The notes beneath the pieces are model-generated. The model was not told the origin of the DNA. It saw nothing but the letters and a program-made list of their open reading frames with translations, and did not search any database. The position numbers were made by a program, and so were the translations under genes. Shown here in pieces: positions 57,646 to 64,000 of a stretch of 64,000 nt of DNA. Numbering within the stretch: the first letter of the stretch is position 1; the number at the start of each line of letters is the position of its first letter. Source of the DNA: Nitrososphaeraceae archaeon (GTDB taxonomy: Archaea > Thermoproteota > Nitrososphaeria > Nitrososphaerales > Nitrososphaeraceae); the NCBI GenBank assembly GCA_035250975.1, contig DATFEP010000004.1, positions 1 to 64,000 on the forward strand, written 5' to 3'.

Positions 57646-59055
57646 ATGAATTTTTCAGTCGTCTTTTTTTTGACAATCTTTATTGGATTGTTTATCATTC
57701 CTCATTTAGGTGAAATACAATTTGTTTATCCACAACAAATGAATGAAGATAATCCTGTAGATTCCTTTACTAGACCAGTATCAGTTAAAATTACATCTCA
57801 CTCGGAGGGGGAGAAAGTACCTGTTGGAAAGTTGACTATTTCAGGGATATCAAGTGACGATTCGGACAGAAATTGTTTGGTATATGTAGATTGGAATAAC
57901 AAGAAACCGTTTCAGCAAGTTAGAGCGTCTGGTCCTGGCGGAGTAGATGATTTTTCTGAATGGTTTTTTATTTATGATTCGAATTACCACCAAATAATGG
58001 AAGGAAACAATGACCTTACCTCCAAGATAATGTGCGTAGATGATAATGCTCAGTCCGGAACAAAATGGTACTCAATAAATTTGATAGGAATTTTGAACCC
58101 TTCTATGGTTGAATCCATCCAAAGGAATAACACTGTGAAAATGCCAGATGAACCCTTTCAAAATATTATTCCCGGTTTTAACTCCAATCCTGAAAACATA
58201 ATAGGAGAAAACAATTTACCAAATCCAAATCTTCCATCAGTCAAAGAACCTTCACAGAATATTATTCCCGGTTTTAACTCCAATCCTGAAAACATAATAG
58301 GAGAAAACAATTTACCAAATCCAAATCTTCCATCAGTCAAAGCAGGTTTAAAACCCTTGCCAAATTCAGATGGAAATGATGCTATTTATGAAGAAAATAG
58401 GGAAATCGAATCCATACCTCAAACCAATACTTCTATTCTGGAAACAAATATGACGAACTTCCAGAATATTCAAAACAACTTTACTAATGTCAATAATGAT
58501 TCTGGGATTGATATGATTGATGCCACTAATGATCAAATAACTGTTGAGGAAAATTCAAATAATTCCTCCATAAATACAAATAATCTCAATATTCCAATTT
58601 TTGATGAAAACACAATGAGGGATAATAATTTGAATTTAACTTCTGAAAAAAGAACAAATGAAGTGTTATCTGACAAATTCAACGTAATTCTTTCTTTACC
58701 TGATAACATTGCTTTAGGTAATACATATACCTTAGAAATTTCAGTAATTAATAATGGTTCCTTGCCAATACACGATGCCATTATATCTGGTGAGATATAC
58801 AACAGTGATAGCTTAACTTATGACAAAATAAAATTTTTTGGCAAGACAGATATTGACGGTTCCTACAAATTTCCATTAGAGATTAATAAAATTTTTCCAA
58901 CGGGAGAATATAGTATTAAAGTTTTAGCTACAAAACTTGGATCTCCAGACAGTGTTGTTTCTAAATCCTTTATGGTATCAGATAATTTTAAATCATCTAA
59001 CAGTCAAGACATACCTTTAGGAGGTAACGTTACAAATGAAGTTAAAAATAATTAA
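57646..59055 (+). CDS. Secreted/surface protein with Ig-like domains and Asn-rich repeat linker
   Basis: Signal peptide; VKITS...ISGISSD domain; 32-aa duplication; C-terminal GKTDIDGSYKF Ig-like domain. Confidence 0.75.
   Translation: MNFSVVFFLTIFIGLFIIPHLGEIQFVYPQQMNEDNPVDSFTRPVSVKITSHSEGEKVPVGKLTISGISSDDSDRNCLVYVDWNNKKPFQQVRASGPGGVDDFSEWFFIYDSNYHQIMEGNNDLTSKIMCVDDNAQSGTKWYSINLIGILNPSMVESIQRNNTVKMPDEPFQNIIPGFNSNPENIIGENNLPNPNLPSVKEPSQNIIPGFNSNPENIIGENNLPNPNLPSVKAGLKPLPNSDGNDAIYEENREIESIPQTNTSILETNMTNFQNIQNNFTNVNNDSGIDMIDATNDQITVEENSNNSSINTNNLNIPIFDENTMRDNNLNLTSEKRTNEVLSDKFNVILSLPDNIALGNTYTLEISVINNGSLPIHDAIISGEIYNSDSLTYDKIKFFGKTDIDGSYKFPLEINKIFPTGEYSIKVLATKLGSPDSVVSKSFMVSDNFKSSNSQDIPLGGNVTNEVKNN
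58150..58341 (+). repeat. 96-bp intragenic tandem duplication (EPxQNIIPGFNSNPENIIGENNLPNPNLPSVK x2)
   Basis: Near-identical nucleotide copies starting at 58150 and 58246. Confidence 0.9.
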
Positions 59056-60344: not shown

Positions 60345-61493
60345 ATGCATATTTCTGAAATTTTTTACATGAGGTATTATCTGTCATATTCCTTAATGTT
60401 GGTTGTTATTATGGTTTCGATAATAGGATTAGGCAATATTGGCTCGGCTATACCACCAGTCGTAGCACAATCTAATGAGAACGGAAATCCCGTTTATCCT
60501 TACCCTGTTCTTCACAAGATTGAGATGTCTGTGCAGAAAATTGAGAAACCGGGTGATGATTTGTTTGGTTACCAGCTTGATAAACATGAAATTTTCGATC
60601 CAAAAAGTGGTGAATTGTTGAATGATATTACAGATCGATATACAAAGGGACCTACCATCCCTGGACCAACATTAATGTTTGAAGAAGGTGATTCTGTTGA
60701 ATTAACTTTTACTAATCCTGGTAAGTCAATGAATGGAATATGTAACACTAATCCATCTCCAGAGAATACAGGTGCTCCAGGTAGGGTAAGTATTCACGTC
60801 CATGGGATTCATTATTCTATAGCAAGTGATGGGACTTTAGGAATTCTTAATGGCTTAAGAGACGAAGGTGTTTGCCCCGGAGAATCAATAAAATATCATT
60901 ACACCGCTGGTCCCGGAACAGCTGGTACATGGCCTTATCATGATCATGCGCTTGGTCTGAATCCTTCCGGAATTTATATTGATGGTTCAGAAACATTAGG
61001 ATTGTTTGGTAATCTTGTAATTGAGAGTCATACTGGAAAAACAGTGGCCTTGGTTAACGGAATACCAACTAAGGTGAACGTAGCCGATATTGCTAAGGAC
61101 GTCTTCTGTTATGTTACAGATGATGCTTTTTGGTGTGACGAAATAGATTACATCAATAACGCTATTCGCACAGCATTATGGGAAAATCCAACTATCGGTG
61201 CTAAGGATGGTGACTTGATAAGATTCCATTTATACGGAATGGGTACCGATTTTCATATCTTTTCATTAACAGGGTATGAATGGCTTGAACCTGGAACAGC
61301 GCAGATAATCAAAGATAAAAAATTCGGGGCTCTCGAAAACCATGTTTTTACTATTCAGGCCAAAAATGGTATTGCTGAATATAGGGACACAATAACATCG
61401 CATCTTTTATCTGGAATGAAAGGATCATTTATGGTAGATAGTGTTGGAAAAAGTGTTCCTGGAAAATCACCATTGGAGGGAGTTGTAAATTAA
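60345..61493 (+). CDS. Secreted two-domain multicopper-oxidase-like protein A (domain-1 Cu ligands intact, domain-2 ligands lost)
   Basis: Signal peptide; PTIPGPTL, SIHVHG, WPYHDH; domain 2 degenerate (FHIFSLTGYEW, EYRDTITSHLLSGM); ATG 60369 is a likely start. Confidence 0.85.
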   Translation: MHISEIFYMRYYLSYSLMLVVIMVSIIGLGNIGSAIPPVVAQSNENGNPVYPYPVLHKIEMSVQKIEKPGDDLFGYQLDKHEIFDPKSGELLNDITDRYTKGPTIPGPTLMFEEGDSVELTFTNPGKSMNGICNTNPSPENTGAPGRVSIHVHGIHYSIASDGTLGILNGLRDEGVCPGESIKYHYTAGPGTAGTWPYHDHALGLNPSGIYIDGSETLGLFGNLVIESHTGKTVALVNGIPTKVNVADIAKDVFCYVTDDAFWCDEIDYINNAIRTALWENPTIGAKDGDLIRFHLYGMGTDFHIFSLTGYEWLEPGTAQIIKDKKFGALENHVFTIQAKNGIAEYRDTITSHLLSGMKGSFMVDSVGKSVPGKSPLEGVVN

Positions 61494-61495
61494 AG

Positions 61496-64000
61496 ATGAA
61501 CAAATTAAAAAATAATATCATAATGATTTTATTTGCAGTAATATTGCTGTCCTCTACATTAACAATTGGGACACAAAATAATGTACACAAACCTGAGCTA
61601 GTGGATAGAAACGGAAACACTGGTCAAATAAAAATCGGTGGGACACATCCTATAATACAAATTGCTGAAGCAACTAGCGAAGAAAAGATGAAAAACGAAA
61701 TGAGAAACAATGTTCCTTACAAGAACACAAACCAAGATTCTGAAATAAACTACTACGCTGATAAAAAATCATTTCAAGATAATAGTCAATCTAATTCTGA
61801 CCTTGGCATAATTCATGAGGTAACTATCGAATCAAAGGAACTACCAAACGGACAATATGGTTATATTATGAAAAAGCATATAGTAAGAGATGAAGACTCA
61901 GAGACTGATTTAACATCTAGGTATCCTAATTTCCCTACTATCCCTGGTCCTACATTAGAAATTCATGAAGGGGATTTGCTGATCCTTACTTCGATAGATC
62001 AGAACGGATCCCAAAAAGTACAGCAAATAAAAGCAAAATCACCTGGAACTTTTGAATATTATGGTGAGAATTTTAGAACTTTAGGATTGTTTGGTGCTAT
62101 AATTGTTGATCCATATGATAATGTTCCTGCACAATTAAACGGCAAAGTCGTATCAGTTGATCTAAGAGATCTTGAGAAACAATATGTTCTGTTCATGGTG
62201 GGTTCTACTTTCTGGGGTCAAGAGATTGATTCAAAGCATAATCAAAAACCATTATGGACAAATCCTACATTAGGAGCAGATTTGAATCAGTTAGTCAGGT
62301 TCCATGTGTTAGGGGCCTTACATCAGCATACTTTCCATCTACACGCTCACAGATGGCTGGATCCGGGAACCACAAACATTATTGATACAAAATTGATTTT
62401 TCCATATCAGAGTCACTCCTTCATAGTTGAAGCAGGCGACAAAGTAGGAATTGGCAATTGGCAATATCATTGTCATGTATTTGCTCACATGGAAGCTGGA
62501 ATGATGGGTACGTTTAAGGTAGGGCCTGTTGGGAGTTTCACCAAAAGTATACCTGGTGCGTCTCCACTCGATGGAGGGCCAACTGAACAAGGGGACTTCA
62601 TAACATTTTCTATAACAGATGATCCAGGAAGATACTTTAAGAACGTAGGCGGAGAAATAAAAATAAAAGACGAAAGAGGAGAGCTTGTAGCATTAACAGA
62701 TACAACAGAATCATTTGGAGTAGTAGGTAAAGGAGGAACTGTACACTTCATAATGGACGATACAAATGCTGTACATACGATTACTAGTCTTTTATGGCCA
62801 TCAGAAGCAAACAATATGCCTATGCAAACTATAAGCAGCCATAATGAAAAAGTAAACTCTAACCAGAAGCTCAACCAGATATCATTACCCCCACATATGC
62901 CATTCGATCAAATTACCGCATATTCTGGAGGTGGCATAGTAAAACTTGAAACGCCTGGATTGTATGTTTTTACTTGCAAAATACATCCCTATATGTTTGC
63001 AGGAGTAATAGCAGATGACCCTGAAACGACTGGTTTTGACTTAGGTGATGAGCTTGAATTAAGCACGGGAGATAAAGTAGCCTCTAGTAATGACCTCTCA
63101 TTAGCTTTATTAAGGACATTCTTCATTGCGAATAATCCCTCTAACTGGAAGGATTATAGTACAGATATTCCTTCAGATTTGAAGGATTCTAGTGTTGCCA
63201 ATTCAGAATGGACACCTAAATTTCCTCATATTCCAGTAAAAACAGACCAAAAGGACGTATTCTATCTTGATGAAGCACTTATGACTTCTATGAAAGAAAC
63301 GACTATTCTCGGAAATACACAACAACAAATTACCGGACTAGACACAATTCAAAATCCATCTATCCCAGGAGTTGGCGAAGTGTGGATAGATACACAATTT
63401 GAGGAAACAGCTAACAAGACAAAACCAGGAACAGCAACCAAGGTGAATGTCGAGAATTGGAAGGTTGAAAGAAAGGTTTCATTGCCTCAAATAAATATGA
63501 ATCATCCACATAATATGTGGAGTGACTCCAATCAAGAAGTGATGTATCAAACTCAATGGTTTGATAATCGGTTGACTGCATTTGACAGAAATACTGGGAC
63601 ATTACTTGATGATATCAAGGTTGGGGATGCACCGTCACATGTTATGACAAACCCTACAAATGACCGACTCTATGTTGTGTTAAGCGGTGAACAAGGAGTC
63701 GCAGAACTTGATTTTGACAAACAAAATAATAAATTCAATATATTGAGAATAATGCCCATGCAAGATTCTGGTCAACTCCCAACACATCCTCACGCACATT
63801 GGATTACTCCAAATGGAGAGAAGATGATTACTCCAAATCATTTCACGAATGATGTAACTATCTTTGATTTCACCAAAAATCAAGGAAAAGGGGAAATCCA
63901 ATCCAGAGTAAATACAGGCATGATGCCCATTGCAACTGGCATGATGCCAGACGGAAAGAAAGCTTACGTCTCTAGCCTGCTTAATAGTACGGTTGATCTT
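61496..64000 (+). CDS. Large secreted multicopper oxidase B + cupredoxin + YVTN-like beta-propeller (partial, runs off the window; not in ORF track)
   Basis: Manual translation is open for 835 codons; HTFHLHAHRW (62327), WQYHCHVFAHMEAGM (~62459), VHTITS + CKIHPYM (62774, 62975), NHPHNMW, PSHVMT, THPHAHW. Confidence 0.88.
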   Translation, partial: MNKLKNNIIMILFAVILLSSTLTIGTQNNVHKPELVDRNGNTGQIKIGGTHPIIQIAEATSEEKMKNEMRNNVPYKNTNQDSEINYYADKKSFQDNSQSNSDLGIIHEVTIESKELPNGQYGYIMKKHIVRDEDSETDLTSRYPNFPTIPGPTLEIHEGDLLILTSIDQNGSQKVQQIKAKSPGTFEYYGENFRTLGLFGAIIVDPYDNVPAQLNGKVVSVDLRDLEKQYVLFMVGSTFWGQEIDSKHNQKPLWTNPTLGADLNQLVRFHVLGALHQHTFHLHAHRWLDPGTTNIIDTKLIFPYQSHSFIVEAGDKVGIGNWQYHCHVFAHMEAGMMGTFKVGPVGSFTKSIPGASPLDGGPTEQGDFITFSITDDPGRYFKNVGGEIKIKDERGELVALTDTTESFGVVGKGGTVHFIMDDTNAVHTITSLLWPSEANNMPMQTISSHNEKVNSNQKLNQISLPPHMPFDQITAYSGGGIVKLETPGLYVFTCKIHPYMFAGVIADDPETTGFDLGDELELSTGDKVASSNDLSLALLRTFFIANNPSNWKDYSTDIPSDLKDSSVANSEWTPKFPHIPVKTDQKDVFYLDEALMTSMKETTILGNTQQQITGLDTIQNPSIPGVGEVWIDTQFEETANKTKPGTATKVNVENWKVERKVSLPQINMNHPHNMWSDSNQEVMYQTQWFDNRLTAFDRNTGTLLDDIKVGDAPSHVMTNPTNDRLYVVLSGEQGVAELDFDKQNNKFNILRIMPMQDSGQLPTHPHAHWITPNGEKMITPNHFTNDVTIFDFTKNQGKGEIQSRVNTGMMPIATGMMPDGKKAYVSSLLNSTVDL

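Follow-up and report, generated by a model that had tools for sequence, protein, structure and literature searches.

Two-domain multicopper oxidases of the small-laccase type (SLAC) carry a type-1 copper in domain 2 and build a trinuclear copper cluster where domain 1 of a chain faces domain 2 of its neighbour, three such two-domain units closing the ring. The six-domain oxidases ceruloplasmin and hephaestin likewise consist of a ring of cupredoxins, with a complete trinuclear cluster at just one of the interfaces between domains. To our knowledge, the trinuclear cluster of a multicopper oxidase has always been described within one gene product or between identical subunits. A further relevant system is Nmar_1354, in which a pendant type-1 cupredoxin follows a two-domain oxidase; the enzyme converts hydroxylamine (NH2OH) to HNO with O2, and its α-α-α′ 'heterotrimer' is reported to contain three copies from the same gene, one of them without the dangling domain (PMC11761707). 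Here we analyse a stretch of 64,000 nucleotides (the window; positions 1-64000 of contig DATFEP010000004.1, denoted C16) from the genome of a Nitrososphaeraceae archaeon (GCA_035250975.1; 91 contigs, 2.49 Mb), which encodes archaeal AmoA, and describe two adjacent genes, A and B, that have kept opposite halves of the copper ligands of a SLAC-type oxidase. The two proteins probably work only as a pair, to judge from their sequences, and we consider it fairly likely that they are the subunits of a heteromeric, extracytoplasmic multicopper oxidase.

Gene A encodes a 382-residue protein with two cupredoxin domains (Table 1). Pfam PF07732 scores 35.1 bits, over its cut-off; the best match in the PDB (phmmer) is small laccase 3t9w_A (E 1.5e-9), and both domains align to small laccase 4m3h_A. 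The stop codon of A at 61493 is followed 2 bp later, on the same strand, by the start of B at 61496. Protein B exceeds the cut-off of Pfam PF07731 and has small laccase 4uan_A as its best PDB match (E 4.2e-17). A preliminary description of the locus had recognized this co-oriented arrangement and proposed that the two are paralogues with signal peptides. Indeed, A and residues 1-400 of B share 29% identity over 327 columns (BLASTP, E 2e-34), and the hydrophobic stretches at both N-termini are signal-peptide-like, as judged from sequence. The same description had ended the feature at 62580. The frame of B is instead open to the end of the window (835 residues up to that point) and reaches its stop at C16:64873, which makes B a three-module protein of 1125 residues. 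B as a whole is not small-laccase-sized; to its SLAC-like part it adds a further cupredoxin and a propeller.

The ligand motifs that had been singled out all lie where they had been placed, and alignment with small laccases (phmmer, PDB) sets HVHG and YHDH of A, and HTFHLHAH and HCH..H..M of B, on copper-ligand motifs; we take their assignment to T1, T2 and T3 copper to be the one familiar from small laccases. Protein A has kept the four cluster His of domain 1. Its domain 2 has lost the corresponding motifs and retains the distal His and the Met (SHLLSGM). In B, domain 1 is some 46 residues shorter than that of A and devoid of HxH motifs, and domain 2 has a full ligand set that includes a type-1 site formed by His278, Cys326, His331 and Met336; since A lacks the type-1 Cys, this site (His, Cys, His, Met) is complete in B and not in A. 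Also intact in B is HCH, whose Cys-His bridge is the hallmark of the wire from type-1 copper to the trinuclear cluster. Counted per chain, four of the eight cluster His are found in A (domain 1 only), four in B (domain 2 only) and all eight in A plus B, so that a complete cluster could arise only where domain 1 of A meets domain 2 of B.

This reciprocal loss is conserved among relatives of the pair. A scan of one genome per species gave 170 stretches that encode relatives of A; the best 80 loci were kept and all 80 classified, with the ligand columns read from a MAFFT alignment of 137 oxidase segments. A-type genes occur in 51 of the 80 loci (53 genes, two loci having tandem pairs). All 53 have kept the HxH and HxH motifs of domain 1 and lost HxH and HCH of domain 2, one truncated gene showing only the second pair of domain-1 His; His151, His153, His199 and His201 are invariant in the 53 rows of the A-type alignment (A2). 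The 51 B-type genes are their mirror image: each retains His-x2-His-x-His and His-Cys-His-x3-His-x4-Met, and none has the four domain-1 His. The domain-2 ligands are invariant in 52 of 52 rows of the B-type alignment (A3). At the lost domain-2 positions of A-type proteins, the replacement residues differ between lineages. The former type-1 Cys is nearly always Asp (archaea and Nitrosomonas) or Asn (Nitrosospira/Nitrosovibrio) with the axial Met kept, the other lost positions showing free variation; a remnant role of the former type-1 site of A is possible.

The hosts of the 51 loci comprise Nitrososphaeraceae (16), Nitrosomonas, Nitrosospira, Nitrosovibrio and a few unclassified proteobacterial metagenome-assembled genomes (MAGs). 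The check that the preliminary description had called for, namely whether the complementary pair recurs in other archaea and in bacteria, therefore came out positive for other Nitrososphaeraceae and for bacterial ammonia oxidisers, N. europaea ATCC 25978 among them. Linkage is equally constant: in 50 of the 51 A-type loci the next frame downstream, on the same strand, is a B-type or propeller open reading frame (ORF), and the one remaining locus (L021) stops at a contig edge. In one locus (L083) the frame downstream of A is without an oxidase part. The 2-bp gap of the window is replaced by a 4-bp overlap in N. europaea. A-type matches are present in 23 of 24 sampled genomes of the same genus, and the genome analysed here holds a second pair at C12:68549-72539, whose A′ (370 residues, 42% identical to A) and B′ (957 residues, 45% identical to B) show the identical reciprocal ligand loss and group in the tree with a pair like that of Ca. 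Nitrosocosmicus franklandus (L105). A B-like propeller fragment at a contig edge (C59:2-1375; 84% protein identity to B′) is either a third copy or stems from a co-binned strain, the contamination estimate of the genome being 2.6%. Two Nitrosomonas MAGs (L076 and L078) have two tandem A-B pairs on one contig and thus a duplication of the whole pair. Across lineages, no conserved third gene accompanies the pair in the 80 loci, where only lineage-specific regulators were seen.

In a tree of the oxidase parts (132 rows; maximum-likelihood quick search in IQ-TREE with SH-aLRT values only, a method that overstates support; unrooted, with long branches), a branch with an SH-aLRT of 99 sets all 54 A-type rows apart from the rest, and another with an SH-aLRT of 100 does so for all 49 B-type rows. 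Bacteria form one clade within A and one within B (98 and 99, respectively), and a Nitrososphaera locus (L034) is nearest to the bacteria in both. A second tree of 53 rows recovers the same A and B clades with parallel sub-lineages in each. It sets fused, complete archaeal oxidases on the B side and methanotroph oxidases on the A side (SH-aLRT 91, branch length 0.013), and it is too weak to order the arrangements in time. A single A clade and a single B clade with parallel sub-lineages are most simply explained by one event of reciprocal loss, followed by exchange of the pair between archaea and bacteria.

Both genes are under purifying selection, including the domains that have lost their ligands. 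Among 13 orthologues of the pair in the window, the median ratio of nonsynonymous to synonymous substitution rates (dN/dS, here approximate) is 0.098 for domain 1 and 0.091 for domain 2 of A, and 0.081 for domain 1 and 0.047 for domain 2 of B; constraint is as strong on the 'dead' domains as on the others. The relaxed selection that would have spoken against a functional pair is thus not seen in A domain 2 (0.09) or B domain 1 (0.08). Metatranscriptome contigs from four studies cover A and B. Two of them, from two studies, span the A-B junction at ~96% identity: X16 (2473 nt, 60383-62855) and X17 (3038 nt, from 61104 to 64000 in the window and onward). The upstream segment 59500-59950 is uncovered in all four RNA runs. 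These data are consistent with expression and co-transcription of A and B in soils.

Next to these comparisons stands a predicted complex. Residues 55-382 of A and 100-365 of B were modelled as two chains with separate alignments. The model reached an interface score (ipSAE) of 0.85 (runs 0.87, 0.85 and 0.84), the best of three controls reaching 0.00; the mark used for this score is attained by 58 of 80 solved complexes and 2 of 110 mismatched pairs, a calibration that is roughly valid here, the alignments being user-made. Contacts agreed to at least 86% between runs, and the predicted local distance difference test (pLDDT) of the partners was at least 89. The confident contacts place His153 of A next to His281 of B and His151 of A next to His283 of B, the arrangement of a productive interface between domain 1 of A and domain 2 of B; a portion of A domain 2 is in contact with B domain 2 as well. 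The preliminary description had held that neither chain can complete a cluster by itself and that this interface can. Complementary loss, linkage, co-inheritance, selection and the predicted His-His contacts all support that proposal.

Past its oxidase part, B adds ~760 residues that comprise a third cupredoxin, a linker, a propeller and a tail. The third, pendant cupredoxin bears an amicyanin-like type-1 motif whose His, Cys, His and Met are invariant in 63 of 63 rows of alignment A1. Its profile matches pseudoazurin 2ux6_A weakly (E 5e-4), amicyanin matches also being weak, and the structure model places strands there. The linker has a helix at model residues 169-181 and falls below a pLDDT of 50 at residues 193-205. 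The propeller is seven-bladed and of the YVTN/lactonase type: Pfam PF10282 scores 25.9 bits (cut-off 21.7), and an AlphaFold model (pLDDT 92.3) superimposes best on 1l0q_A (VIA-align Z 38.8, root-mean-square deviation 2.0 over 296 residues), followed by 6nau_A (Z 36.0), the generic propeller background in VIA-align being Z 29-39. Profile searches of the PDB returned only YVTN, lactonase and hydrazine-synthase-beta propellers, Foldseek the same classes plus cd1 NirS, and the ESM Atlas only generic YncE, lactonase and NHL clusters. In alignments of relatives, His residues of the propeller are invariant or nearly so in NPHNMW, PSHVM and PHGHW and in a CxxxCH stretch; the C-x3-C-H of the latter (LPCDPGCHGVNFGAK), superficially like a variant haem-c motif, could represent a disulfide plus a metal-binding His, as far as its residues suggest. 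Assignment of the propeller to the NosZ type has no specific support, the match to the L-NosZ NCBIfam model being weak (NF052460, 37.1 bits versus a cut-off of 700, E 1.3e-9). By the CuA motif definition used for the comparison with NosZ, the single-Cys C-x2-H-x2-M motif of the B cupredoxin is a type-1 motif and not CuA. The C-terminal tail contains a low-complexity segment rich in Gln, Lys and Glu (C16:64676-64732) with KIMLKQQEI twice in tandem and ends in IPIPYP; it is not present in the bacterial and C12 homologues and could serve as an anchor or spacer.

The same modules occur in unsplit form. The remaining 29 of the 80 loci encode a complete two-domain oxidase with all twelve ligand positions. 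In 24 of them, all from methanotrophs or unclassified proteobacterial MAGs, the next gene encodes a cupredoxin-propeller protein of ~600-640 residues without an oxidase part; two others are Nitrosopumilaceae loci with no cupredoxin-propeller neighbour. Three genomes of a further archaeal ammonia-oxidiser family (f13) join a complete oxidase and the cupredoxin-propeller part in a single chain of 1099-1218 residues and have no adjacent A-type gene. That oxidase and propeller are found separate, fused, or fused with split ligands amounts to Rosetta-stone evidence of joint action. Two loci (L103 and L104) from a second genus of the family of the window (g21) encode an unfused cupredoxin-propeller protein of 626-633 residues with no oxidase gene within ~4-5 kb on either side. 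In one fused f13 oxidase-cupredoxin protein (L107, genome G106), HCH reads PCY, so that the Cys remains and two cluster His are replaced; its frame (713 residues) stops inside the propeller part, and it may be a decaying or remodelled copy.

A hidden Markov model (HMM) search with the cupredoxin-propeller part covered 251 genomes of the order of the window. Strong matches were obtained in 20 of 56 genomes of its family and in 9 of 57 of f13; two further families gave weak, propeller-only matches. Families f4 and f9 encode, in 18 of 20 sampled genomes, a distinct protein of ~715 residues whose weak match is confined to the propeller part (E 1e-52 to 1e-64) and which seems to represent a widespread propeller family of its own. 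Among 301 sampled genomes of the order of N. europaea, the propeller protein is present in 4 of 8 genomes with ammonia monooxygenase (AMO) and in 2 of 293 without, and both AMO-less matches sit on high-numbered contigs (C41 and C42). Two AMO-bearing genomes of that order (G289 and G482) have fused B-type frames of 918-928 residues together with an unfused, methanotroph-like cupredoxin-propeller frame of 603-613 residues.

How the heteromer might work can be outlined from these features. Domain 1 of A would give four His of a SLAC-type T2/T3 trinuclear cluster, and domain 2 of B four further His together with the type-1 site (His-Cys-His-Met), so that an O2-reducing cluster would form solely where the two domains meet. 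The number of active clusters in an A/B assembly would then be lower than in a SLAC homotrimer, with perhaps a single one in each ring. Electrons might pass from a substrate at or near the propeller to the pendant type-1 copper, on to the type-1 copper of B domain 2 and through the Cys-His bridge to the shared cluster, at which O2 would be reduced to water. As to the substrate, we tentatively suggest NH2OH, HNO or NO, that is, a nitrogen intermediate common to ammonia and methane oxidisers, because of the precedent of Nmar_1354 and because the hosts are those of copper monooxygenases; oxidation of Cu(I) or Fe(II) would be the main alternative. A bolder version, in which the His-lined propeller is a new catalytic site for the oxidation of these intermediates and feeds a two-step type-1 relay to a single asymmetric cluster shared by two different subunits, appears rather improbable to us. 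If true, it would make the assembly a new kind of copper enzyme of nitrifiers and methanotrophs, at once an accessory oxidase of N-oxides that had been missing and a present-day link between homotrimeric two-domain oxidases and single-cluster six-domain ones such as ceruloplasmin. With regard to origin, an ancestral complete two-domain oxidase may have worked with a cupredoxin-propeller protein and then been duplicated, after which one copy would have fused to the propeller protein; the copies may have lost opposite ligand halves once, and the pair would subsequently have spread as a unit between ammonia-oxidising archaea and bacteria.

A number of points weigh against this scheme. The synonymous rates are high (median dS 0.8-1.3), so dN/dS is approximate; RNA contigs cannot prove one transcript, and DNA may occur in RNA libraries. 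The score of the A+B model, the only combination modelled, may reflect memory of solved SLAC homotrimers. A ring of three units cannot alternate A and B; closed as A2B or AB2, it would plausibly combine a single complete cluster with a half-site and an interface that is empty, the ceruloplasmin-like picture of the preliminary description. Further multicopper or NirK-like genes in the genome (C87, C68, C15 and C12:11740) make other partners possible. The distribution is patchy as well: four of the eight AMO-bearing genomes of the bacterial sample are without the propeller protein, the HMM search did not find the cupredoxin-propeller part in any of 57 sampled genomes of family f10, and most sampled archaeal ammonia oxidisers likewise lack the system. 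As it is not universal in ammonia oxidisers, it is not their core hydroxylamine or NO enzyme. Finally, structural comparison revealed no specific likeness of the propeller to copper propellers (NosZ 2iwf, Z 30.9; thiocyanate dehydrogenase 5f75, Z 29.3; both within the generic background), and a catalytic metal site in the propeller of B is conjecture.

The accessory, non-universal distribution also fits a real heteromer with another job, namely metal homeostasis through oxidation of Cu(I)/Fe(II) or through copper acquisition for the copper monooxygenase, instead of the oxidation of nitrogen intermediates. This we regard as possible, if somewhat doubtful. A heavy demand for copper is common to all its hosts, ammonia and methane oxidisers, and copper limitation is reported to induce the MCO1 and MCO4 genes of archaea, for which Cu(I) oxidation has been proposed (PMC7785015). 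Against it, no conserved copper-transport or copper-resistance genes stand beside the pair in the 80 loci, and the propeller module has no known role in cuprous oxidases.

Alternatively, A and B could form separate homo-oligomers with reduced copper sites and be neighbours only through a common pathway, B being a homotrimer with a type-1 site and a one- or two-copper site whose four His all come from one side, loosely like the type-2 site of NirK, and A a copper-binding homotrimer. Homotrimers are the rule for two-domain oxidases and NirK, and A2B and AB2 rings would hold half-sites in any case. We nevertheless judge such an arrangement unlikely: if the halves did not meet, the exact complementarity seen in all 53 A-type and all 51 B-type genes would be difficult to account for, the modelled interface uses the ligand-bearing faces with His-His contacts, and apart from the one contig-end case no A-type gene is without B in the 80 loci. 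Slightly poorer still are the prospects of a role for A as a non-catalytic scaffold, maturation factor or regulatory paralogue, with B an electron-transfer protein whose two type-1 coppers serve the propeller; the conserved cluster His would then hold no trinuclear cluster, and O2 would not be reduced. A domain 2 is indeed conserved where the model puts the interface (residues 246-249, 261-264 and 272-278 of alignment A2), as would suit a structural part, but eight His that are invariant across archaeal and bacterial sequences of ~40% identity argue for metal binding, and the HCH bridge motif of B, the hallmark of a wire from type-1 copper to the trinuclear cluster, is intact. A duplication in decay, in which at least one copy is turning into a pseudogene, is what the loss of catalytic ligands would suggest if a single genome were viewed; it is refuted by dN/dS of 0.05-0.10 in all four domains, frames intact in dozens of genomes from two domains of life, a loss pattern identical everywhere and RNA-library contigs over both genes.

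Table 1. Coordinates of genes A and B, their domains and their ligand motifs (window positions equal C16 positions; aa, amino acids).
Feature	Position	Strand	Basis and remarks
Gene A	60345..61493	+	ORF, 382 aa; two-cupredoxin, SLAC-like; hydrophobic N-terminus ~aa 1-42
A domain 1, trinuclear-cluster ligands kept	60795..60947	+	alignment to SLAC HxHG and HDH motifs
A HVHG (His151, His153)	60795-60806	+	on SLAC domain-1 HxHG in phmmer alignment
A YHDH (His199, His201)	60936-60947	+	on SLAC domain-1 HDH in phmmer alignment
A domain 2, ligands lost	61254..61418	+	alignment with small laccases
A HIFSLTGY, in place of laccase HxxHxH	61254-61277	+	phmmer/MAFFT alignment
A YRDT, in place of YHCH; Asp at type-1 Cys position	61380-61391	+	alignment
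Gene B	61496..64000, on to C16:64873	+	ORF, 1125 aa; hydrophobic N-terminus aa 1-26
B domain 1, shortened cupredoxin, no HxH motifs (~aa 105-205)	61808..62110	+	alignment
B FEYYGE, in place of WxYHDH	62051	+	alignment
B domain 2, full ligand set	62111..62575	+	alignment with small laccases
B HTFHLHAH (His278 type 1; His281, His283 trinuclear cluster)	62327-62350	+	alignment
B HCHVFAHMEAGM (His325, Cys326, His327, His331, Met336)	62468-62503	+	alignment
B third cupredoxin, amicyanin-like type-1 motif (~aa 365-510)	62588..63025	+	profile match, model strands
His in AVHTITS	62768-62788	+	type-1 motif
C-x2-H-x2-M in FTCKIHPYMF	62969-62998	+	type-1 motif
B linker, partly helical, partly low-confidence (~aa 511-614)	63026..63340	+	model
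B seven-bladed YVTN/lactonase-type beta-propeller (~aa 615-1010)	63341..64000, on to ~C16:64525	+	Pfam PF10282, model
Propeller His motif NHPHNMW	63500	+	conserved
Propeller His motif APSHVM	63629	+	conserved
Propeller His motif HPHAHW	63785	+	conserved
Propeller motif LPCDPGCHGVNFGAK (C-x3-C-H), near-invariant	C16:64202-64246 (B aa 903-917), beyond window	+	conservation

Around the pair, the third paralogue that had been suspected beyond 64000 was not found; downstream of B lie a minus-strand gene for an NHL-repeat protein and a metallophosphoesterase-like ORF, the second pair being located on C12. Upstream, at 57646-59055 on the plus strand, a secreted-looking, Asn-rich protein of 469 residues contains an exact internal repeat of ~29 residues (QNIIPGFNSNPENIIGENNLPNPNLPSVK, twice).

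In public records, proteins of this system have generic names such as 'multicopper oxidase domain-containing protein', 'beta-propeller fold lactonase family protein' and 'YVTN family beta-propeller'. A full-text literature search brought up neither a split-ligand or heteromeric two-domain oxidase, although an earlier listing under another label, for example MCO2 or MCO3, is possible, nor an oxidase-cupredoxin-propeller protein in nitrifiers. The archaeal lineages MCO1-4 are said to go back to the 2016 work of Kerou et al. If the split of the eight ligands over two genes is true, the pair would, from what we know and from this search, be the first natural obligate-heteromeric multicopper oxidase, one that combines a new quaternary logic with a new domain combination. 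The system as a whole occurs in organisms responsible for nitrification and methane oxidation; N. europaea, Nitrosospira multiformis, Ca. Nitrosocosmicus franklandus, Methylocystis and Methylotuvimicrobium are among those that have been cultured. Which copper enzymes act on NH2OH, HNO and NO in ammonia oxidisers, and what the source of N2O is, are open questions for which the conserved and probably expressed A/B pair is a candidate.

Taken together, SLAC, the type-B small laccase known from Streptomyces (PDB 3cg8, 3t9w, 4m3h and others), is the system closest to A and B by sequence, with which both share the two cupredoxin domains. There, each chain has the eight cluster His and the type-1 site, and a homotrimer holds three clusters, whereas here the ligands are split over two genes. 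The methanotroph and f13 versions have homologous oxidase, cupredoxin and propeller modules with unsplit ligands and no A-type subunit. For the C-terminal module of B, the YVTN/lactonase propellers of an S-layer protein (1l0q), YbhE (1ri6) and hydrazine synthase beta (5c2v) define the fold class. The lactonase-type clade III NosZ shares this class, but B has no CuA motif and its score is far under the cut-off. The likeness to ceruloplasmin is an analogy in logic only, a single eukaryotic chain standing against separate subunits here: A has two and B three cupredoxin domains, so that neither is a six-domain protein, and ceruloplasmin 5n0k matches B domain 2 weakly (E 0.045-0.049). The pair, if our reading is true, would nonetheless provide a concrete intermediate for the evolution that has been proposed to lead from trimers of two-domain oxidases to six-domain oxidases with their asymmetry. 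With Nmar_1354/MCO4, finally, B has in common an oxidase module followed by a dangling C-terminal type-1 cupredoxin, and both occur in ammonia oxidisers; the structure of Nmar_1354 (9CCK) was not among the matches listed for residues 1-533 of B (the best 60 of 99, E up to 10). According to its report, Nmar_1354 differs in having the complete ligand set in one chain and no propeller, and offers the precedent both for a nitrogen intermediate as substrate and for an electron relay from type-1 to type-1 copper (PMC11761707).

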